Part shown: positions 3,038-27,183 of the stretch, in pieces
Layout: the number at the start of each line of letters is the position of its first letter
Numbering within the stretch: the first letter of the stretch is position 1
DNA from: a virus
Taxonomy: Duplodnaviria; Caudoviricetes
DNA length: 58,128 bases
Strand: one strand, 5' to 3'
Virus record (IMG/VR): IMGVR_UViG_3300030104_004696
Location: 1-58,128 of that record
Position numbers and translations under genes: made by a program
The notes under the pieces: model-generated
Told to the model about the DNA's origin: nothing
The model's input: the letters and a program-made list of their open reading frames with translations, nothing else
Database searches by the model: none

Positions 3038-6000
3038 ATGGATGAGAAAGAGTTAGAAGCTTTATTTGAACTATTACAAGAAAGTGAGAGTGGTCTTGAA
3101 GATGTAAACGAGGCGAGAGCTATAATTGAAACTGAAGGGATAGGAGTTTTCTTTCCCTTAGTAGAAGATAGTTTTGAATCTACAGAACAATTTCAACAAG
3201 CTTTTCCAAGCTTAAAAAAAAAAGACGATTCACAATTTTCTTCCGAAGAGGAAGTTATGGTATCAGATACAGAACAAGTTCAAGAACCTGGCTCATCGGA
3301 GCCTTCTCCTCAAATACCATCTGAACCAGCTGGTAGTTCACTAACCACACCCCCTATTCAACCTGAAGTAGTTGAGACTACTGCAGAAGAAGTTGTCACA
3401 GAAACTCCTGTTGAGGAGGATCTGATGGAAACAGATACTGAAGAACTATATCAGTCTGATGGTTTAATTACTGATGAATATACTTCACCTGGTCTAATAG
3501 AGGCTACTGATGAAGATGTAGATAATCTCCCTGGTATATTAGGATTGTTCGATTATAACGAATGGATGGACTTTGGAGATGATGTAGTTAAAACTGTAGG
3601 GAACGCTGTCGATAGAGGTAACACAGTAGATGAAGCTTTAAAATTATTATATGAGGGAGCTGATGCTAAAGATATAGATATAGAAAACTTTCTAAAAGTA
3701 TTACAAGATTTAGAAGACGGGGAATATGTAAGAGAAGAGGAGGAATGGAATAAAGCTAAAGAAAAATGGGGTGGCGGAGCTTTTGGTTGGTTGATGGCTT
3801 ATTATGAAAACCCTACTCGAGCTCCATTAGCACTAATACAATCTGTTACTCAATTAGCAAACAAAGCATCTTTATCAGCGGGGGGAACTGTAGTGGCAGG
3901 AACAACAGCGGCAGGAGCTGCAGCGGCAGGAGCAGGTGCAGTACCTGCATTTGTAGCCAGTCTTCCTTGGGCTTATGGTGCGGCCAGTGCTACATTAGAA
4001 ACAGGTCTTACTTTTGCAGAGTTACTTGAAGAACAAGTAAAAGAAAATGGAGATGAATGGAATTTAGAAGGGGTAAAAAAAGTATTAAGTAACCCAGAGC
4101 AGCTTCAAGATTTAAGAATAAAATCTGCAGGTAGAGGTGCGGTTATAGGTTTAGTAGATAAATATACGGGAGGTATAACCAGTTCTATGGTTAAAAAAGC
4201 CGCTAAAGATGTAAGTAAACAAACCCTTAAAGAAGGACTTAAAACAGCGGTAAAAGTAGAAGCAGTAGGTTCTGTAGGTGGAGGTGTTGGGGAAGTTTTA
4301 GGTATGACGGTAGCTGGTCAAGAGTATGATGTAGCAGAAATTTTAGACGAGATGTTTATAGGAACTCAGGGTACCGCAGTAGAGGCGGGTTCTGCTATTA
4401 CATTAAATAAAATTAGACCTGCTGTTTATAAACTAAACTCTAAAGGAAAAGATGGTATTGTATCAGAGCAAGATATGATTACTTTTTTAAAGACAGCTAC
4501 TGATGCAGAAATAGCAGAGGCTGAAGTTACTATTGAAAATAATAGTGCTCTTAAAAAAATTGCGGAAGATAGAAAGAACAAAGCTCAAAAGGATGCTATA
4601 GTAAAAGCAGAATTAAAACGATTAGGCATTAATAATGAGCAAGATTTAAATGAACTTACATCTTTAGAGCATGAAAAAAGCAGGTTAGAAAAAGATAATA
4701 CCAGAGCTTCCAAGAGAAGATTGGTAGAGGTTAATAATAGAATAGATGAAATATTAGATAATACAAAAGTAGAAACAACTGCAGAAGTTGAGGTGACAGA
4801 TCAAGAAGCAAGAGAGTCTTTGGAGTTAGACAATGAATTAAACGCTCAAATGGAATCACGAGGTATGCCTAATTCAGGGCAACAAATTATTGATGATGCC
4901 GCAATACAAGAAAGAAAAAATAAACTAATAAAAGAGAAACAAGATGCCATTCAAGAGTCAAGCACAACGCAGGTGGATGTACAAGAATCTACCCAAGATA
5001 GCCAAGAGGTGGGAGAAAGAGACACCCCTGGGCAGCCTACCCAAGAAGGTCAAGAAAATCAAACAGATATTGAAACGCAACAAGAGACGGAAATAGAAAC
5101 TCCCGCTTTCGAGCAAGTAGATGAAACAGTATCTATGAATAGGAGTAAAATACCTCCTAATAAAACTCGTTTTGCGTTTAGCGAATTAGTAAAAGAAACT
5201 GCTGTTAAAGCAGGGAAAGCTTTAAAAAACATTGTACCTGAAATAAAAATTGTACTGCATGAAAATGCTAATGACTTTGCTGATCAAGCAAATGACAATG
5301 CTAATAACAGAGGGGTATATGATAACAATACTAAAACCATACATATTAATTTAGAAAAAGCTAAACGTTCTACTATAGCTCATGAAACTTTTCACGCAAT
5401 TATTTTAAGTAAACTTAAGACTGATGTTAATACTCAACAAGTTACTAAAAAAATGATGCAGTCGTTAGCAAAGACATTACCTAAAGATTCAGCTTTGTTA
5501 AAAAAAGTAAATGAGTTTGCGGCTAACTATGATGCTAATTTACAAAACGAAGAAAAGGTGGCAGAAATAGTAGGAGAATTATCTTCTAACTACCAGCAAT
5601 TATCGGCTCCTCAAAAGAGTTTAATTCGTAGATGGATAAATAAGATTGCCCAAACTTTAGGTATTAAAAAAGAATTAGATAGTGCTACCCAAACTGACCA
5701 GGATGTAATTGATTTACTTAATACTTTATCTAAAAAAGTTAGAACAGGAGAAACCATTACTGAGCAAGATGTTAGTGTATTAGATGAAGGAAGAGTTCAA
5801 AAACCTGTGAAGGAAACTAAAAAAACTTCTAAACCTAAACAGCGTCAGCAGAAAGGACAGCCTACAACTATGGCTAAACTTATGAACTTTTATAAGATGG
5901 ATAAAGATGGTTTTATAGAACCTAAAAATGTTTATGATTTAGATGCCTTGGAAGAATGGGCGGGGAAGGTAGGACATAGAGTGGACCGATCAAGAGGTGA

Positions 6001-9000
6001 TAGAGGAGAAACTACAAAGTATTATTTAAGAGATAAACAAACAGACAGAAAGTTTAATCCTGTTACCAAGCGTCAGCAGAAAGGAGAGATGACGGGTTAT
6101 GAAAGAATGATGAAAGAAGTAGAAGGGATTATTTCTAAGTCTGAAAAAAGAGGAGTTAAATTCAATAAGATTTCTGAAAATGTAATTGAATACATTAAAG
6201 GGTCTAAGGTTTATGAAAGAGCGACAGATATACAAAGAGAAAATTTATTAAGAGATGCTCGAGAAAGATTTGGTATTAAAGATAAACCTTCAGTAACAAT
6301 GAATAAGTTGTTTGATAAATTAAAAGACGTTAAGAAGATAACGGTATCAGACAAGACTTTATTGTATCAAAGGTTAAGAGATTTAAACAGAGGGGCTAAA
6401 ACTGCTAAGGCTGCTTTCGTAAAAGGAAGCAAAGAGTTAGCTGCTACCACTAAAGAATTGGTTTCATCAGGAAGAATATCTGCTAAACAAGCGGCAGCTG
6501 TTATCAGTAGATTCTCAAAAGTAAATATGTTTAATGACGCTTCTGTTAATTCCTTTATTGATTACATGGCTAATGTATTTAAAGATGCGGAGTATAGTTC
6601 TAAGATGGCATTTGCTAATAAGAAAAGAAAGCAAGCTAAGAAAAATATATTTACTAAATTAGGTAAAGCAGATGGTTTATTAGGTTCTTTAAATAGATTG
6701 CTAAGTGTAAACCCTACTCTGATTCCTGATAGTGTGCTTAATAAATATTTAGAAGTATTAGAAATGTTTGGTGAAAGAGCTTCTGTACTTACACTGGATG
6801 AAAAAAGTAAAAGCATTAAAGATGTAGAAAGTATTTTAGAAGCATTGGAGATGGAACAATCTAAAGTAGATGAACTCTCTTTAATTTTTGCTGACTCTAA
6901 TAATAAAGTTTATAATGATAACGACACTATAAATTATACTGAGACAGTAAAGAAAATGTTAGACGAGGGAGAAATTACTACTGAGTATGCGGACTTAATG
7001 CGTAAGTATAAAAAAGATATTTCACCTCAATTAGAAGACACGCAACAAACAGACGCAGAATTAGATCAAGAAAGACAAGATATAATAAAAAGATTTGATA
7101 ATGTAATTATAGATAAAGATTCTTTACCTACTCGAGAGGAAAGAGCTTTAGCTAAAAGATTAGATAAATTAATTAACACAGTAGCTTTAGACCAGTTGAA
7201 TATTACGCAGCTAAAAAACTTGTTAAAAGTTATAGATAATATAAACAACGGATACCTCCCTCACTATGCTCAGTTATTAGTAGAAAGCATGGAAGCGATT
7301 AATGATGGGGATACTTTAGCTGATGGTATAAGTAAAGGAAAGCCATTACCACTTTCTAAAATATATGCAAACTTTAAATCCCTATTAACCAGAAAAGATG
7401 CTTACTTAGAAATGATAAGAAGAAACCCTTTGTTTTATATTGACCAAGTTTTTGGTAATTTTAAAGGGAAAGATATTTATAATTCTTTATTTAATCCTCT
7501 TGCAAAAGCTAAAGCTACATTTGATAAAGCATTTTCTACTGTTCAACAGAGAATTGAGAGAGCACAAGATAAAGTAAAAAAATCTTTTAAATCGGATATG
7601 AATAAGTTATTAAAGTCCAGCTTTAAACAAACAGCTTACATGGTCCAATTAGAGTTTGAGTCTAATCCTGATAGTAAACAAGTAAATCCAGCTGCTGAAT
7701 ATATTAAGTCTACTATTAAAGCAATTAGAGATGGTAAAACTCATTACGCTGAAAAAGATGCTCAAGTATTAGAAGATATTTTAGAAGATTTTTCTGACTC
7801 AAAAGGAAATATAAATTTAGATAAACTTTATAATTCTTTTAATCCTGCAGAAAAAAATTCTATCAAAGTAATTCAAGATGTAAATAAAGAAATGCTTCCT
7901 CTTGCCGAATATACTTCGGGAGTTATAAGAGGAGATAAAATTAATCCAATAGATAATTATGTTCATTTAAATGTAATACAAGATACTACTGAAACAATTA
8001 AAGGAACAGATAGTGTAACGGAATTTAGTGATTCTTTAAACCCTTCTACAAAAGCTAAGTCTTTAATTTCTCGTACAGGTAAGGTAGCTCCTCTTAATTT
8101 TAATATTTACTCCTCAGCCCAAAGGGGAGCAAAGTTTGTTTTATTAGATAGGTACATGACAGAACCTGTGAGGACTGCTCGAAGAACTTTAAAATTTGCC
8201 GAAAATAAATTAGAGCAAGACAATAATGGTAGGATACCAAAAGAACAACGAAAGATATTTAATGCTATTAAAGGAGCTTTTAATGAATCTATAGAAATGG
8301 ATCTTGTCAACATGTTTACGGAAAGCACTTTAGGAGATAGAGCATTTGATTACATGAGTAAACAAGGATACCGTACTATGTTAGCGGGAACAGGAAGGTT
8401 TGCTGCCGAATTATTAGCCAACTTATCTTATGCGGTTTTTGTAAATCCACAAGCTTTATTAACTGCTGGTAAGCTCAGATCTTTTGTTATGTCAGCTGAT
8501 GCTGTCCAAGTAATGGATAATGTAAATAGTACCCAGACTAATCGTATGTTTCCTGGAGATAAGCTGTCAGGAAGAATGGTGGATACTAATATTTTAAATC
8601 AAAGTATAGGTAAAAAAGATAGTAAAACAAAAAGTATAGTTGCTAATAAACTACAGCAAATTTATAATTTATCTCTTAAAAAATATATGAATTTTGTTGA
8701 GCTAACAGCCGATACATTAATATCATCTCCTGATAAAATGATTATGAAACCAATATGGTTTGGAAGCTTTGCAAATGCTTTTAAAGAAGCAGCAGGAGTG
8801 GAGGTTGATTTGGATAAGATAGCAAAAAATGATGAGGCTTACATGACTAAATATGCGGAGGCAATTAAAACCGCTCAAGTTAAAGCTGATGAAAACTCTG
8901 TTCAAGCAGGAGCAACTACAAACCCTTACCAAACATTTTTAAAAGGGAAGACAAATAAAAATCAAAGCATTTCTGCAAGAGCCTTTAATATATTTAATAA

Positions 9001-9802
9001 TTTTATGCAGAACTTCTTAATCTTTGAGTATATGACAGCCCGTACTGGAATTAACGCTGCAGTAGGTAATGGTATGATAAATAAAATACAAGGAGCAAAA
9101 ATGATAGCGGGAGTTACTTCTCGTATGGTTCTTTATACCTTGTTAGTCAAAGTGATGGGCAGTGGTTTAATAGGATTGTTTAGTGATGAAGAAGAGGAGG
9201 AGAAAAAAGATATAGACAAGCAAGTAGGACAAGCGGTTCTATCTGCATTTTCCACTTTATTACTTGGAAGGGACTTTGGAAATGTAACTAAAAGTTTAAT
9301 AAATATAGGTGTTGAAAACTTTAATGAACAAAACCTTGAGATGTTAAGAGATGGTGAGTACGATCCATATAAAGATGCATTACAATACACTATTACTGCA
9401 GGAAGAAGAGAATATAAAGGTTATGATTTAGGAAAGATAATGCTTAACTTATTTGGCCCTTATACTCCGGCTATTAAAACATTATCTTTTGGAGTTTCAA
9501 AACTGGGTGAACCAAAGCGTAAAACAAAAGCTGCACGAGAAAGACAAGAAAGAGAGATTAGCGAAAGACTTCCTTTAGAAATTTTAGGAAACTTAGGATT
9601 AATTCCTATCTATAAAGATGTAAGAAAAGAGGTTATTGGAACTATATATAAAGACATAAACAAAAAACCAAGCACACCAATGAGTGATAAGGATATGAAA
9701 AAATATCATCCAGAATTATACAGGATGCAAAAAGATTTGGAAAAAAGAACTCCTCAAACTCCAAATATTCCTACACCTCCAACACCTAAATTACCCAGGT
9801 GA
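3038..9802 (+). CDS. Giant internal virion/polyvalent protein with zincin-like metallopeptidase motif
   Basis: 2254 aa; acidic N-terminus, Gly/Ala hydrophobic segments, and RGVYD...IHINL...TIAHETFHAII...EEKVAE (HExxH plus downstream Glu). Confidence 0.7.
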   Translation: MDEKELEALFELLQESESGLEDVNEARAIIETEGIGVFFPLVEDSFESTEQFQQAFPSLKKKDDSQFSSEEEVMVSDTEQVQEPGSSEPSPQIPSEPAGSSLTTPPIQPEVVETTAEEVVTETPVEEDLMETDTEELYQSDGLITDEYTSPGLIEATDEDVDNLPGILGLFDYNEWMDFGDDVVKTVGNAVDRGNTVDEALKLLYEGADAKDIDIENFLKVLQDLEDGEYVREEEEWNKAKEKWGGGAFGWLMAYYENPTRAPLALIQSVTQLANKASLSAGGTVVAGTTAAGAAAAGAGAVPAFVASLPWAYGAASATLETGLTFAELLEEQVKENGDEWNLEGVKKVLSNPEQLQDLRIKSAGRGAVIGLVDKYTGGITSSMVKKAAKDVSKQTLKEGLKTAVKVEAVGSVGGGVGEVLGMTVAGQEYDVAEILDEMFIGTQGTAVEAGSAITLNKIRPAVYKLNSKGKDGIVSEQDMITFLKTATDAEIAEAEVTIENNSALKKIAEDRKNKAQKDAIVKAELKRLGINNEQDLNELTSLEHEKSRLEKDNTRASKRRLVEVNNRIDEILDNTKVETTAEVEVTDQEARESLELDNELNAQMESRGMPNSGQQIIDDAAIQERKNKLIKEKQDAIQESSTTQVDVQESTQDSQEVGERDTPGQPTQEGQENQTDIETQQETEIETPAFEQVDETVSMNRSKIPPNKTRFAFSELVKETAVKAGKALKNIVPEIKIVLHENANDFADQANDNANNRGVYDNNTKTIHINLEKAKRSTIAHETFHAIILSKLKTDVNTQQVTKKMMQSLAKTLPKDSALLKKVNEFAANYDANLQNEEKVAEIVGELSSNYQQLSAPQKSLIRRWINKIAQTLGIKKELDSATQTDQDVIDLLNTLSKKVRTGETITEQDVSVLDEGRVQKPVKETKKTSKPKQRQQKGQPTTMAKLMNFYKMDKDGFIEPKNVYDLDALEEWAGKVGHRVDRSRGDRGETTKYYLRDKQTDRKFNPVTKRQQKGEMTGYERMMKEVEGIISKSEKRGVKFNKISENVIEYIKGSKVYERATDIQRENLLRDARERFGIKDKPSVTMNKLFDKLKDVKKITVSDKTLLYQRLRDLNRGAKTAKAAFVKGSKELAATTKELVSSGRISAKQAAAVISRFSKVNMFNDASVNSFIDYMANVFKDAEYSSKMAFANKKRKQAKKNIFTKLGKADGLLGSLNRLLSVNPTLIPDSVLNKYLEVLEMFGERASVLTLDEKSKSIKDVESILEALEMEQSKVDELSLIFADSNNKVYNDNDTINYTETVKKMLDEGEITTEYADLMRKYKKDISPQLEDTQQTDAELDQERQDIIKRFDNVIIDKDSLPTREERALAKRLDKLINTVALDQLNITQLKNLLKVIDNINNGYLPHYAQLLVESMEAINDGDTLADGISKGKPLPLSKIYANFKSLLTRKDAYLEMIRRNPLFYIDQVFGNFKGKDIYNSLFNPLAKAKATFDKAFSTVQQRIERAQDKVKKSFKSDMNKLLKSSFKQTAYMVQLEFESNPDSKQVNPAAEYIKSTIKAIRDGKTHYAEKDAQVLEDILEDFSDSKGNINLDKLYNSFNPAEKNSIKVIQDVNKEMLPLAEYTSGVIRGDKINPIDNYVHLNVIQDTTETIKGTDSVTEFSDSLNPSTKAKSLISRTGKVAPLNFNIYSSAQRGAKFVLLDRYMTEPVRTARRTLKFAENKLEQDNNGRIPKEQRKIFNAIKGAFNESIEMDLVNMFTESTLGDRAFDYMSKQGYRTMLAGTGRFAAELLANLSYAVFVNPQALLTAGKLRSFVMSADAVQVMDNVNSTQTNRMFPGDKLSGRMVDTNILNQSIGKKDSKTKSIVANKLQQIYNLSLKKYMNFVELTADTLISSPDKMIMKPIWFGSFANAFKEAAGVEVDLDKIAKNDEAYMTKYAEAIKTAQVKADENSVQAGATTNPYQTFLKGKTNKNQSISARAFNIFNNFMQNFLIFEYMTARTGINAAVGNGMINKIQGAKMIAGVTSRMVLYTLLVKVMGSGLIGLFSDEEEEEKKDIDKQVGQAVLSAFSTLLLGRDFGNVTKSLINIGVENFNEQNLEMLRDGEYDPYKDALQYTITAGRREYKGYDLGKIMLNLFGPYTPAIKTLSFGVSKLGEPKRKTKAARERQEREISERLPLEILGNLGLIPIYKDVRKEVIGTIYKDINKKPSTPMSDKDMKKYHPELYRMQKDLEKRTPQTPNIPTPPTPKLPR
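5841..6085 (+). repeat. 17-bp direct repeat AGCGTCAGCAGAAAGGA flanking an in-frame cassette
   Basis: Exact copies at 5841-5857 and 6069-6085, 228 nt (76 codons) apart; both encode RQQKG. Confidence 0.85.
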
Positions 9803-22364: not shown

Positions 22365-22613
22365 TCATAACCAATACTCTTGACTGCACCATTTACTACA
22401 AAAGGTATTTTCTTCTTCTACCTCTTCATTGCAATTATTACATAAGTAAGGGTTTAATTCTTCATTACATTCATCACAATATTCTTCGTCCCAACCTCTT
22501 GGCACTTCTTTCCATTCATAATACTCATCACAATTATAACATTGCTCAAGATCCTTTGTTTTTTCTAATTCAGGAAACTCCATAAATTTTGCTTCTAATT
22601 CTTTTCTTGTCAT
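22365..22613 (-). CDS. Small Cys-rich zinc-finger protein
   Basis: CYNC, CDEC, CNNC and CSKWC motifs. Confidence 0.7.
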   Translation of the reverse strand: MTRKELEAKFMEFPELEKTKDLEQCYNCDEYYEWKEVPRGWDEEYCDECNEELNPYLCNNCNEEVEEENTFCSKWCSQEYWL

Positions 22614-22615
22614 AT

Positions 22616-22795
22616 CTATTTAATTTTATAATATTCAATTAGCAAACTATCTTGCTTTACTTGGTATTCGTTCCATAATTTATTCATCTCGTAATCAATC
22701 TTACTTCTTTGATGTAATTGTTCATCAGTAAGTTTGTTCATCATTCCACATGAAGTTAGTAAACTCGCTGTTATTACTATTAATATCTTTTTCAT
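22616..22795 (-). CDS. Small lipoprotein (59 aa, not in ORF track)
   Basis: MKKILIVITASLLTSC signal peptide II/lipobox; AATAGAT-ATG leader. Confidence 0.7.
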   Translation of the reverse strand: MKKILIVITASLLTSCGMMNKLTDEQLHQRSKIDYEMNKLWNEYQVKQDSLLIEYYKIK

Positions 22796-22797
22796 AT

Positions 22798-23268
22798 CTA
22801 TTCTATTTCAGTTAATACTCCGTTAATTTCCTCATACTGATAATCTCCAGTACATTCCCATTCAGTATAATATACTCCATAGTGATTGTATCCTATCTCT
22901 AATATATCATCATCATTTTTACTTTTCCAATTAGCAAATTCTACTCCACCATTTGCTATTTCCTCATCCATAAGTTCTTTGATATGTTTTACTGCATCTA
23001 CCTTATTCTTAAAGTATTCATCAGTTTGTTCATCTATCCATCCCTCATTCATTCCTTTGTGAGTGATAGAACATTTTCTTGCGTATTTCATATTGTGTGT
23101 TATGTACTCAGACGCCCATTCTAAAACTTGCTTAGATGATACTTCAGCATCTATGGTATCAGATAACTCATCATTCCATACTGATAAGTATAAATTGTCT
23201 TTATAGATTCTTGCATCTATTCCGTACTTACTTTTAAGTACCTCTACTGCTTTTTCGCTTGTTGTCAT
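22798..23268 (-). CDS. Hypothetical early protein
   Basis: 156 aa; its ATG is 23 nt downstream of the hammerhead A cleavage site. Confidence 0.7.
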   Translation of the reverse strand: MTTSEKAVEVLKSKYGIDARIYKDNLYLSVWNDELSDTIDAEVSSKQVLEWASEYITHNMKYARKCSITHKGMNEGWIDEQTDEYFKNKVDAVKHIKELMDEEIANGGVEFANWKSKNDDDILEIGYNHYGVYYTEWECTGDYQYEEINGVLTEIE

Positions 23269-23285
23269 TGTGTGTTATTTAAATT

Positions 23286-23339
23286 AATACTGACACTACT
23301 TGCGTAGTGTTTCGTCCCATTAGGACTCATCAGAGTATT
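23286..23339 (-). ncRNA. Type I hammerhead ribozyme A
   Basis: Minus strand AAUACU-CUGAUGA-GUCC(UAAUG)GGAC-GAAA-CACUAC(GCAA)GUAGUG-UC/AGUAUU: complete catalytic core, three perfect stems and GUC triplet; predicted cut between 23292 and 23291. Confidence 0.95.
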
Positions 23340-23465
23340 TTATCTGTATGCAGGACAGGAAGTAGCGTTCTTTTTAGCATAGCTTGATGCATATGGACAA
23401 TAGCTACTTGCACAACTTGATAATAAGAATGTTAATACTACCGCTACTAAAATTGACTTTTTCAT
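23340..23465 (-). CDS. 41-aa lipoprotein flanked by hammerhead ribozymes
   Basis: MKKSILVAVVLTFLLSSC lipobox; mature CASSYCPYASSYAKKNATSCPAYR; ACACACAAAACAA-ATG leader. Confidence 0.75.
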   Translation of the reverse strand: MKKSILVAVVLTFLLSSCASSYCPYASSYAKKNATSCPAYR

Positions 23466-23484
23466 TTGTTTTGTGTGTTGTTTT

Positions 23485-23542
23485 ATACTGACTATCTCAT
23501 TTGAGATAGTTTCGTTGCATTTCAGCAGACTCATCAGAGTAT
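23485..23542 (-). ncRNA. Type I hammerhead ribozyme B
   Basis: Minus strand AUACU-CUGAUGA-GUCUGC(UGAAAU)GCAAC-GAAA-CUAUCUCA(AA)UGAGAUAG-UC/AGUAU: complete core with one bulge in stem II; predicted cut between 23490 and 23489. Confidence 0.92.
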
Positions 23543-23710
23543 TTATTTGACCTCAACAAACTCAAAGTTTTTAAATTTGTCTCGTAGTTTTTGATTAATC
23601 TCTTTTATCAATTCAGACTCTTTAATCTTATAAAATGCGATTAACTCTTTGTTGTCTTTTGGGTTTTGGTTTAAACTCTTTATGAGTCTTTTTAATTCAA
23701 TTATATTCAT
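23543..23710 (-). CDS. Hypothetical early protein (55 aa, not in ORF track)
   Basis: MNIIELKRLIKSLNQNPKDNKELIAFYKIKESELIKEINQKLRDKFKNFEFVEVK; its stop abuts hammerhead B. Confidence 0.6.
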   Translation of the reverse strand: MNIIELKRLIKSLNQNPKDNKELIAFYKIKESELIKEINQKLRDKFKNFEFVEVK

Positions 23711-23738
23711 TTGTTTATTGTTTTATATTAATATTCTG

Positions 23739-24152
23739 TTAAAGGTTGTTGTATTGAGGCATTCTTTTTTGATAGTGTGCCGCTTTATATGATTTATGCA
23801 AATTGTGAAATAGTGTGTATTGTGCATGAAATAGCATATCCATTCCACACCCTGAAATTCTGCCATTCTCAGAAACACCCGCTAAGGATAATATTTCTTT
23901 ATCGCCTATTTTATGCAGTTTGTTCTTATAGATGTAAGCAAGTTTTATTGTTCTGCTCCTTCCTGATTTGCTAACGCTTTCAACACCGGCGTAAAATTTA
24001 CCTTTTAATAGTGCGTTTTTAATTCGTTGCAATTCTTCCGCTTTCCAATTTGTTAACTGCGGTTTGTCTTTCTCTGTCCAAAAATCAGAGGTTTTAATAT
24101 CTTCATTAACTAACGCTTCCGCAAGATTTAAAATATGTTTTGTTGTTTTCAT
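23739..24152 (-). CDS. Hypothetical early protein
   Basis: SVSKSGRSRTI...ISGCGMDMLF motif recalled from phage early proteins; ACACACAA-ATG leader. Confidence 0.7.
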   Translation of the reverse strand: MKTTKHILNLAEALVNEDIKTSDFWTEKDKPQLTNWKAEELQRIKNALLKGKFYAGVESVSKSGRSRTIKLAYIYKNKLHKIGDKEILSLAGVSENGRISGCGMDMLFHAQYTLFHNLHKSYKAAHYQKRMPQYNNL

Positions 24153-24171
24153 TTGTGTGTTTTTTTATTTA

Positions 24172-24309
24172 TTAATTTATTGTTTCAATTATTACGTCAT
24201 CATAACCTTTATTAATCCACTCTGATTTTTCAATTTGGGCTTCAATTAAGGTATTAAAATAGTTTGGAATCCCTCCAATCCATACAATATATTTTGTTTC
24301 TTTTTTCAT
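24172..24309 (-). CDS. First early gene, 45 aa (not in ORF track)
   Basis: MKKETKYIVWIGGIPNYFNTLIEAQIEKSEWINKGYDDVIIETIN; ACACACAA-ATG leader. Confidence 0.6.
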   Translation of the reverse strand: MKKETKYIVWIGGIPNYFNTLIEAQIEKSEWINKGYDDVIIETIN

Positions 24310-25349: not shown

Positions 25350-25512
25350 TGTTAATGTTCAACACTAAAGTGTTATTCTTTTTTAAAGTCAACACTAACT
25401 TAACTTATTGATTTACAATAACTTAAATACTATTAGTGTTAAAGTGTTAAGTTAAACTCTTTTTTTTATAATAATAATAATAATAATAATAATAGAATAT
25501 ATATATATATAA
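25350..25512. repeat. Second origin-like locus: AACACT/AGTGTT repeats, IHF-like site, (ATA)n and (AT)n tracts
   Basis: TAGTGTTAAAGTGTTAA at 25434-25450 is identical to 17480-17496; palindrome AACACTAAAGTGTT at 25361-25374; AATCAATAAGTTA on the minus strand at 25401-25413. Confidence 0.6.
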
Positions 25513-25562
25513 AAGAAAAAATAAATACAACATCTCACCACAATGTATATATATATTTTTAT

Positions 25563-25570
25563 TATCTTTG
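25563..25570 (+). promoter_or_regulatory. Promoter -7 box TATCTTTG (groEL)
   Basis: Matches TAnnTTTG upstream of groEL. Confidence 0.75.
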
Positions 25571-25602
25571 CCATAAATTAAATTTAATTAAATCACAACA
25601 AA

Positions 25603-27183
25603 ATGAAAGACCAAGGATACATTCCAAAAGACCTGTCTTTTGATGACAAGGCAAGAACCAAATTAATATCGGGAATCTCAAAAATCTCTAACGCAGTTAA
25701 ATCAACTCTGGGCCCCCAGGGCCAGACTGTATTGATTGAGTCAACACAGCATACTCAAGGGTTAACAGTAACTAAAGATGGTGTGACTGTCGCTAAGTCA
25801 ATCTTTCTTTTAGATCCTGTAGAAAACTTAGCGGTTAGAATGATGAAGCAGGCTTCTGAGAAAACTGCTAATACTGCAGGAGATGGAACAACTACAGCGA
25901 TTGTTTTAACGGAGGCTTTAGTAAAGGCTGGACAAAAGTATATTAAAGAAGGAGAGAATACTATTAAGGTAGTAAGGGCTATAAGAGAAGCAGGTGATAA
26001 GTTATTAGAAAGAATAAAAGAAGAATCGGTTGATGTAACTGATGATATGTTAAAAGATATAGCAACAATCTCTGCAAACAATGACAACGAGATTGGTGAG
26101 ATTATAGCTAAGGCTTATAAAGAAGTAGGGCGTGATGGCATAGTAACAGTTGAAAGATCTCAAACTGATGAGACCTATGCTGAGGTTACTAATGGTATTA
26201 AAGTAGATAGAGGATGGACTTCTCCTATGTTTATTAATGACCAAAGAAAAGATGAGTGTATATATGAGGATGTTAAAGTTTTAATATGTGATAGTGAAAT
26301 AAATAATATATTACAAATTGAGAATGTTCTAAAACCTATTATCAATGCAGGAGAAAAATTACTTATCATTGGAGACTGCTCAGGTAATGTGATTAATACT
26401 TTAGCCGCTAACGTACAAAGAAACGGACTGAAGTTCTGTAATATTGTCCCTCCATCATTTGGATATAAGACTCACGAGTTAATGCAAGATATTGCGTTTG
26501 CAGTAGGTGCTAAATACTTTTCAGAGAAAACAGGAGACGATTTATCCCTAATTAGAATGGAAGACTTAGGTCATGCAGATAAAATTATTGTAGGAAAAGA
26601 TAATACTATCATTATAAAAAACGGTGAGATTACTAAAGAGACTATAGCAAGAGTAGACGAGCTAAGAGACCAGCAAGAAAGACTAACAGCTAAACATGAG
26701 AAAGATTTTATTAATGAGAGAATCGCTTCTTTAGTTGGAGGAATAGGATGTATACAGGTAGGAGCTACTTCTGATATAGAGCAAAAAGAAAAATTTGACA
26801 GAGTCGATGACTCTGTCTGTGCAGTGCGTTCCGCACTACAGGAAGGAATAGTTGCTGGAGGAGGATTATTATTAAACACCTTATCTAAAGAATTAAAAGG
26901 AAAGAGTACTGCTGATAAGATTCTTAAAGAAACATTACAAGCTCCCTTACAGCAAATACTTGTAAACGCAGGATTAAATAAAAAAGATATCTATGAAGAA
27001 GATCTTAAAAAGAACTTCGGATATAATGTTGTTACAGGTAAATATGGAGATATGTTTGAAATGGGAGTTGTGGATCCAGCTAAGGTTACTATACAAGCTT
27101 TATCCAACGCTATTAGTGTAGCAACAACTATACTTACTACCAACGCTATAATAACTCACGCAAGAATAGGACAAGATGATTAA
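25603..27183 (+). CDS. groEL: Chaperonin GroEL (Cpn60)
   Basis: STLGPQG, VTKDGVTVAKSI, AGDGTTTA, IATISAN, EGIVAGGG and GVVDPAKV motifs; no GGM tail. Confidence 0.97.
   Translation: MKDQGYIPKDLSFDDKARTKLISGISKISNAVKSTLGPQGQTVLIESTQHTQGLTVTKDGVTVAKSIFLLDPVENLAVRMMKQASEKTANTAGDGTTTAIVLTEALVKAGQKYIKEGENTIKVVRAIREAGDKLLERIKEESVDVTDDMLKDIATISANNDNEIGEIIAKAYKEVGRDGIVTVERSQTDETYAEVTNGIKVDRGWTSPMFINDQRKDECIYEDVKVLICDSEINNILQIENVLKPIINAGEKLLIIGDCSGNVINTLAANVQRNGLKFCNIVPPSFGYKTHELMQDIAFAVGAKYFSEKTGDDLSLIRMEDLGHADKIIVGKDNTIIIKNGEITKETIARVDELRDQQERLTAKHEKDFINERIASLVGGIGCIQVGATSDIEQKEKFDRVDDSVCAVRSALQEGIVAGGGLLLNTLSKELKGKSTADKILKETLQAPLQQILVNAGLNKKDIYEEDLKKNFGYNVVTGKYGDMFEMGVVDPAKVTIQALSNAISVATTILTTNAIITHARIGQDD

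Follow-up and report, generated by a model that had tools for sequence, protein, structure and literature searches.

The window, by which we mean the whole stretch of DNA analysed, is a complete IMG/VR virus record of 58,128 bases, and the sequencing runs of its source sample are labelled marine metagenome. Eight of its ten large ORFs gave PHROG matches (large terminase, portal, virion protein, two helicase/primase proteins, exonuclease and a GroEL-like chaperonin), and those to terminase, portal, helicase and primase proteins identify the source as a tailed dsDNA phage. A leftward run of small minus-strand genes extends from 24309 to about 21400 and leads into the replication genes; inside it lie two hammerhead motifs, HH-B and HH-A, on either side of a very small predicted lipoprotein gene. 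The features that concern us, from upstream to downstream in the direction of that run and followed by three large plus-strand genes, are:

23543..23710, minus strand: upstream ORF of 55 aa, with no PHROG match
23485..23542, minus strand: HH-B, type I hammerhead (read directly; covariance model R1; RAGATH-1-hammerhead match below its gathering threshold)
23489..23490, minus strand: predicted cleavage site B, after C23490, placed by the GUC^A position in the hammerhead fold; A23489 would be the new 5'-OH end
23292..23489, minus strand: 198-nt RNA between the predicted cuts (24-nt leader, 41-aa ORF and HH-A)
23466..23489, minus strand: 24-nt A/C-rich leader AGUAUAAAACAACACACAAAACAA, without a Shine-Dalgarno motif
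23340..23465, minus strand: predicted lipoprotein precursor of 41 aa, MKKSILVAVVLTFLLSSCASSYCPYASSYAKKNATSCPAYR (start MKKSILVAVVLTFLLSSC...)
23286..23339, minus strand: HH-A, type I hammerhead (read directly; fold; covariance model R1; Hammerhead_1 match below its gathering threshold)
23291..23292, minus strand: predicted cleavage site A, after C23292, placed by the hammerhead fold
22798..23268, minus strand: downstream ORF of 156 aa, MTTSEKAVEVLK..., starting 23 nt past predicted cleavage site A
22616..22795, minus strand: second small lipoprotein gene, 59 aa, MKKILIVITASLLTSCGMMNK...
25603..27183, plus strand: GroEL-like chaperonin (phrog_5725, E 6.5e-136)
3038..9802, plus strand: very large ORF of 2254 aa
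50397..55757, plus strand: very large ORF of 1786 aa

Between 22300 and 24300 on the minus strand we found no terminator-like sites, and promoter-like sites occurred at chance level (17 versus 18.6 expected), which is consistent with co-transcription of the genes around the two hammerheads. Throughout the window, 39 ORFs are 100 aa or longer, and no Shine-Dalgarno-like tetramer (GGAG, GAGG or AGGA) occurs in the 17 nt before the start of any of them; this absence, together with the lipoprotein signal peptides, suggests that the host is probably a Bacteroidota bacterium. Leaders here are A/C-rich in place of a Shine-Dalgarno motif, as fits Bacteroidota-style initiation. The window contains no tRNA genes, and comparison of 22600–24200 with the phage GenBank collection in distant mode gave no match.

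Direct reading of the minus strand established the layout of both ribozymes. In HH-B, which follows immediately 3' of the TAA stop (23545–23543) of the 55-aa ORF, AUACU (23542–23538) and CUGAUGA (23537–23531) precede stem II, GAAA, stem III, GUC (its C being 23490) and AGUAU (23489–23485); stem I has 5 bp, stem II has 5 bp with a bulged C and a UGAAAU loop, and stem III has 8 bp. HH-A, immediately 3' of the TAA stop (23342–23340) of the lipoprotein ORF, has the same order of elements, with (A)AUACU at 23339–23334, CUGAUGA at 23333–23327, then stem II, GAAA, stem III, GUC (C being 23292) and AGUAUU at 23291–23286; its stem I, AAUACU/AGUAUU, has 6 bp, stem II has 5 bp, and stem III has 7 bp closed by a GCAA loop. 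The segments CUGAUGAG and CGAAAC are hammerhead core segments, and the AUACU/AGUAU stem I that the preliminary description had given to both ribozymes is indeed common to them.

Several lines of evidence establish both motifs as genuine type I hammerheads. A strict core pattern applied to the entire 58-kb genome was found twice on the reverse strand, never on the forward strand and never in a backwards control, and core-pattern, Rfam and covariance-model searches agree that HH-A and HH-B are the only hammerheads in the genome. A search of IMG/VR with the stem I pattern yielded 24 related loci, in which a structural scan identified 40 hammerheads, those of the window included; 30 of these were aligned, exact duplicates and three with a very long stem III being left out. 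In this alignment 96.3% of cells pair, versus 67.3% in shuffles and 24–48% in slid controls; 14 of 17 pairs have changed on both sides; none of 500 shuffles reaches the score of the alignment; and T stands at the variable core position in 29 of 30 sequences, every other core column being invariant in the relatives. Scored with a covariance model of these 30 phage hammerheads, HH-A reaches 71.8 bits (E 3e-18) and HH-B 55.4 bits (E 2e-13); the model detects 42 hammerheads in 25 whole records, with one to four per record. It is this comparative evidence that makes the fold secure, despite missed Rfam thresholds: at gathering thresholds the window has no Rfam match, since the Hammerhead_1 model (RF00163) scores HH-A at 24.6 bits against a gathering threshold of 34, with HH-B absent from its matches, and RAGATH-1-hammerhead (RF03152) scores HH-B at 31.2 and HH-A at 22.7 bits against 56.3. 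The window motifs share the catalytic core and type I topology of the RAGATH-1 and Hammerhead type I families but lie below both thresholds. The RAGATH-1 model can be aligned with HH-B over its full length, and the alignment takes in a possible upstream hairpin that would fall inside the 55-aa ORF. The whole-window E-value search also returned L20-leader and SurA matches, which were weak and which we regard as chance.

The two motifs differ in how well they fold in isolation. The minimum-energy fold of HH-A is the hammerhead (z = -2.6). That of HH-B is not, a local hairpin being preferred over the 5-bp stem I and bulged stem II, and HH-B activity therefore probably depends on contacts, perhaps tertiary ones, beyond the energy model used. 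Inspection by eye revealed no convincing pseudoknot between loop II and the flank such as has been described in type I hammerheads. At 54 nt (HH-A) and 58 nt (HH-B) the motifs are minimal, with no ligand-binding or extra domain seen.

Cleavage at both predicted sites would release a 198-nt RNA (23489..23292), and this fragment holds, as was described at the outset, one leader, one 41-aa ORF and one ribozyme. In its minimum-energy fold the leader is unpaired, as are the first 41 nt of the fragment, start codon included. Signal peptidase II substrates carry N-terminal basic residues, a hydrophobic core and a lipobox of consensus [LVI][ASTVI][GAS]C. Inspected by eye, the 41-aa ORF has MKK, the hydrophobic stretch ILVAVVLTFL and an L-S-S-C lipobox, and its predicted mature part of 24 aa has two further Cys and a C-terminal CPAYR. 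Few relatives of the protein were found: a search of 5.8 billion proteins returned one 37-aa match, its sole IMG/VR relative (39 aa, 64% identical) is encoded on the contig of locus L009, where the signal peptide, the L-S-S-C lipobox and CPAY are all kept, and its single PHROG match is weak (E 0.0038) and to a family of unknown function. Among the ten small early proteins scanned against PHROG, eight had no match and two had weak matches to families of unknown function. An exact 38-base stretch of the lipoprotein ORF found no records among metagenome contigs.

The placement of hammerheads relative to genes is stereotyped in the related phages. For 36 of the 40 hammerheads an ORF ends 0–15 nt before the core (three of the four exceptions had less than 230 nt of flank), and for 34 of 40 an ORF starts 24–34 nt past the cut; of the six that depart from this start distance, two had less than 210 nt of flank, three had their ORFs or starts beyond the 900 nt inspected and one had an earlier ATG at +4. 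The window pair and 14 further neighbouring pairs, with different genes between them, show the same clustering of hammerheads, and these 15 pairs bound 198–4094 nt containing one to several unrelated genes. The 198 nt of the window is the shortest of the 15 inter-ribozyme units. As the fragments vary over this range and in gene content, the window unit represents the short end of an ordinary series. In other phages, sampled with stem I left free (see below), fragments of 183–308 nt mostly hold one small ORF, sometimes encoding a hydrophobic peptide, among the matches listed. In one of these, L139, candidate hammerheads on the minus strand lie 167 nt apart with no ORF of at least 15 aa between them, again among the matches listed; this pair has weak stems (5 bp and 4 bp in stem I), and one of the two may be a false call.

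We assign a probability of about 0.7 to a reading in which these elements, judged on sequence, are active type I hammerheads that process the early-operon transcript, at its intercistronic spacers, into linear mRNAs. Each hammerhead would fold during transcription directly 3' of the preceding gene's stop codon and cut itself 23–24 nt before the next start codon, so that the polycistronic transcript would become linear single-gene mRNAs, each starting, with a 5'-OH, in a short A/C-rich leader free of structure and ending in a compact pair of hammerhead hairpins with a 2',3'-cyclic phosphate. The mRNA of the 55-aa ORF would then end in HH-B, and the tiny 198-nt lipoprotein message would part from its neighbours, uncoupling its stability and translation from theirs. 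This reading is favoured because the cores are complete, the helices covary, placement is stereotyped, the genes between pairs vary, and the L009 lipoprotein gene has a hammerhead only upstream. What we infer here is cleavage in vivo into linear products and the consequent uncoupling of expression; the benefit of excising the lipoprotein message is conjecture. Two metatranscriptome runs from the source sample contained almost nothing of this sequence and gave no contigs over 23000–23900, a result that speaks neither for nor against any form of the RNA.

If cleavage occurs, it might instead make the flanking messages shorter-lived, or be switched by conditions or factors. Perreault et al. (PMC3088659) raised regulated cleavage for phage hammerheads, and the marginal fold of HH-B in isolation would allow modulation; against this, the 54- and 58-nt motifs lack any visible domain through which a ligand could act, and the stereotyped site just before start codons fits the provision of translatable 5' ends better than destabilisation. 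We regard regulation or destabilisation as a very improbable main role.

Comparison of the window with its relatives revealed a mosaic whose seams coincide with the hammerheads. Nucleotide homology to relatives begins and ends where the hammerhead-plus-leader units do, and the genes on either side differ. The stretch of HH-B plus leader (23545..23463) has counterparts in L009 (88% identity) and L018 (83%), each lying before a different gene, and homology to L015 (23344..23105, 87%) begins exactly at the 5' edge of HH-A, the upstream gene being different. Homologues of the 156-aa ORF adjoin hammerheads in L015 and L026 too. In L009, the sole related phage found with this lipoprotein, a hammerhead precedes the lipoprotein gene and none follows it: after a spacer of a few tens of bases comes a homologue of the second lipoprotein gene, with no hammerhead between the two. 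In the window, HH-A and the 156-aa gene lie between these two lipoprotein genes. The gene thus needs no bracketing by ribozymes, as its L009 counterpart does without the downstream one. The second lipoprotein gene has 78–87% nucleotide identity in L009, L012, L019, L020 and L024, and in L024 it lies directly 3' of a hammerhead.

Such boundaries invite a reading at the DNA level, close to the ribozyme-bounded mobile cassette proposed earlier, in which the units are linkers for the exchange of early genes by homologous recombination and RNA cleavage is secondary. The breaks in homology at HH-A and at HH-B plus leader, the position of HH-A and the 156-aa gene between lipoprotein genes that adjoin in L009, and the reassortment of stems II and III (below) all speak for it, and to this extent, at the DNA level and in part, the earlier proposal holds. 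A linker, however, needs no intact catalytic core, yet the core columns are invariant and the helices covary in ways that keep pairing, which points to selection on the RNA fold; moreover, the roles of DNA linker and of RNA cleavage are not mutually exclusive. Mosaic boundaries at gene junctions are also common in phages that have no ribozymes, which weakens the case further. We consider it unlikely that exchange is the primary function and processing the by-product.

Sharing of stem I between HH-A and HH-B was the starting point for the proposal of a circle, and we therefore examined how widely it occurs. AUACU/AGUAU-type stem I is present in 34 of the 40 hammerheads, in a sample that had been fished with this very stem; because the search demanded one AUACU/AGUAU copy per locus, only 16 extra copies are informative, of which eight share stem I and six do not, the other two falling outside this reading. 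Four of the 11 near-complete genomes have a single hammerhead with the AUACU/AGUAU stem I, so this stem is kept even without a partner. We accordingly reject any view of the shared stem I as peculiar to the HH-A/HH-B pair: it is the common stem I of this phage group.

To free the comparison from this selection, we turned to a sample taken with stem I unspecified, consisting of at least 120 loci (L058–L177), of which 86 have a total of 129 structurally valid type I hammerheads; none of these 129 has the AUACU stem I, among the matches listed. Dropping identical hammerhead sets left 83 loci with 122 hammerheads and 39 neighbouring pairs. Among the matches listed, stem I is identical in 15 of the 39 neighbouring pairs versus 1.0% of random pairs from different loci, and the strands of neighbours are cross-compatible over at least 5 bp in 24 of 39 versus 3.5% at random; the same closing pairs of stem II occur in 8 of 39 (random, 6.4%), and of stem III in 1 of 39 (random, 0.3%). 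The 23 loci with pairs comprise, among the matches listed, 13 in which all pairs are compatible, three that are mixed and seven without any compatible pair. Sharing of stem I by neighbouring phage type I hammerheads is thus real and general, though not universal. We found no statement in the literature that neighbouring phage hammerheads have stem I in common and differ in stems II and III; this may be visible in the supplementary alignments of PMC3088659.

For a circle to close, the upstream ribozyme must contribute its 3' strand and the downstream ribozyme its 5' strand (forward pairing); the opposite, reverse, arrangement has no bearing on circles. Among the matches listed, 54 neighbouring pairs show no directional preference: forward pairing is better in 11, reverse pairing in 12 and the two are equal in 31. 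For the window pair itself forward pairing gives 5 bp versus 6 bp in reverse, and the sixth position of the end-joined form is an A.A mismatch. Such symmetry is what shared descent or recombination predicts. The sixth pair of stem I covaries in cis (G-C in 11, A-U in 7, U-A in 6 and C-G in 1) and is mismatched in 9 of the 34 AUACU hammerheads, HH-B included (eight with AATACT/AGTATA and one with CATACT/AGTATA), as expected of recombinants. Stems II and III also reassort: 34 combinations draw on 22 types of stem II and 27 of stem III, and the graph that links the types contains one closed cycle. A crossover inside the ribozyme core would part the two strands of stem I and leave the local hairpins II and III whole; recombining units would therefore have to share stem I, since their products would otherwise be inactive. 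We infer that the uniform stem I stems from recombination inside the ribozyme core, which would account for the pattern without circles.

We can now consider the proposal that the excised 198-nt RNA becomes a circular coding RNA, in which base pairing of its 5' AGUAU with HH-A's AUACU would be followed by end joining, either by the ribozyme or by host RtcB, to give a long-lived lipoprotein mRNA. The geometry is sound, in that this pairing would rebuild a hammerhead and place the 5'-OH beside the cyclic phosphate; the closing helix, at 5 bp, is the one HH-B uses in cis; cross-compatibility of neighbours exceeds random expectation in the sample free of stem I selection, among the matches listed; the unstructured leader and start codon make internal initiation conceivable; and RtcB was found in a Bacteroides control genome, so that a Bacteroidota host might supply the ligase. 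The end-joining helix is nonetheless weak, at -2.6 kcal/mol and about 4% of the modelled ensemble of the linear fragment, in which a competing local hairpin sequesters part of AUACU-CUGAUG. Also counting against the circle are the lack of a downstream hammerhead at the L009 lipoprotein locus, the seven of 23 paired loci without a compatible pair (among the matches listed), the want of directional preference, the retention of the same stem I by genomes with a single hammerhead, and the phage genome itself, in which neither RtcB nor the PF09414 RNA-ligase family found a match. Although the 198 nt make exactly 66 codons, an "endless" ORF translated around the circle was rejected: the ORF frame has one stop and the other two have many, leaving a stop in every frame of the circle. 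A circle would therefore give only the same 41-aa product, which we also count against it. Perreault et al. report that neither circular nor spliced RNAs could be detected for the prophage arrays (data not shown; PMC3088659), and at the level of titles and abstracts we found no literature reports of circular mRNAs from phage hammerheads. As a product or purpose of this locus the circle thus finds no support, with L009, the lineage-wide stem I, the forward/reverse symmetry and the weak helix all leaning against it, and we judge it very unlikely.

We are equally doubtful of the general form of this idea, that neighbouring phage type I hammerheads keep a matched stem I so that excised gene-length RNAs close on themselves, whether closure may be by a non-covalent end-to-end hammerhead clamp or by ligation through the ribozyme or host RtcB. 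Were it true, exonuclease-resistant, possibly circular mRNAs would arise during infection of Bacteroidota and other hosts, and among natural examples of a self-closing gene-length RNA the 198-nt lipoprotein unit would then be the smallest. Stem I sharing and mosaic breakpoints at the units could in this sense be seen either as a footprint of recombination in the ribozyme core or as a hint of end-to-end pairing.

Linear intercistronic processing also agrees with what has been described for phage hammerheads. Type I hammerheads in phage DNA are known (De la Pena et al., 2020, PMC7761336; NAR 2026, PMC13725137), and the relevant passages of these two papers contain no claim of phage circles. Hammerheads flanking phage genes are a layout known since 2011, when Perreault et al. 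(PLoS Comput Biol; PMC3088659) reported prophages in which several hammerheads flank a single gene or a short gene block, obtained the expected cleavage products in vitro from all ribozymes of three arrays and proposed that transcripts are processed to operon or gene length; they considered circular or spliced RNAs conceivable as well. The window resembles those arrays in its same-strand, clustered hammerheads in a phage operon that flank one or a few variable genes, and differs from them, as far as the text of that paper describes them, in belonging to a marine-sample lineage with minimal type I motifs only, a lineage-wide AUACU/AGUAU stem and a conserved leader of about 25 nt. It is thus a new example of the 2011 layout. 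Weinberg et al. (2019; PMC6765202) state that such ribozymes may process polycistronic transcripts and that their purpose needs additional work, and here the locus offers a compact test object: its unit is only 198 nt long, the ORF is tiny and both ribozymes are minimal, so that a single construct could decide between linear and circular products and between stabilising and destabilising effects.

Retrozymes and viroid-like RNAs offer a parallel to the proposed circle: there too two hammerheads of the same polarity release a unit able to rebuild the ribozyme (PMC7761336, PMC5680766), and these RNAs are circularised in vivo. They are, however, repeats of one ribozyme, non-coding and highly structured, with mostly type III hammerheads in infectious circles (PMC13725137). 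HH-A and HH-B, in contrast, differ in stems II and III, with direct repeats of only 17, 13 and 11 nt, and the 198-nt unit encodes a conserved ORF and folds no better than ordinary sequence (z = -0.97; 37 of 200 shuffles fold at least as well). A further likeness is to the hammerheads of linear RNA viruses (NAR 2026, PMC13725137), which are type I, lie in a short intergenic spacer, have a long helix III and cut a few nt before a start; their authors link such hammerheads upstream of ORFs to translation initiation, although the hosts of these ribozymes are eukaryotic RNA viruses with a different translation system from that of the window phage.

Two further intergenic stretches also drew our attention. 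A simple-sequence stretch at 25447–25574, read on the minus strand as poly-Tyr and poly-Ile ORFs, occupies the intergenic gap before the chaperonin gene. Where the leftward early operon and the rightward genes diverge, the short non-coding segment 24753–24835 shows conservation across many relatives, with 98% identity to L018 (55 nt) and 89% identity to L020 (74 nt), and is probably a shared promoter or operator region.
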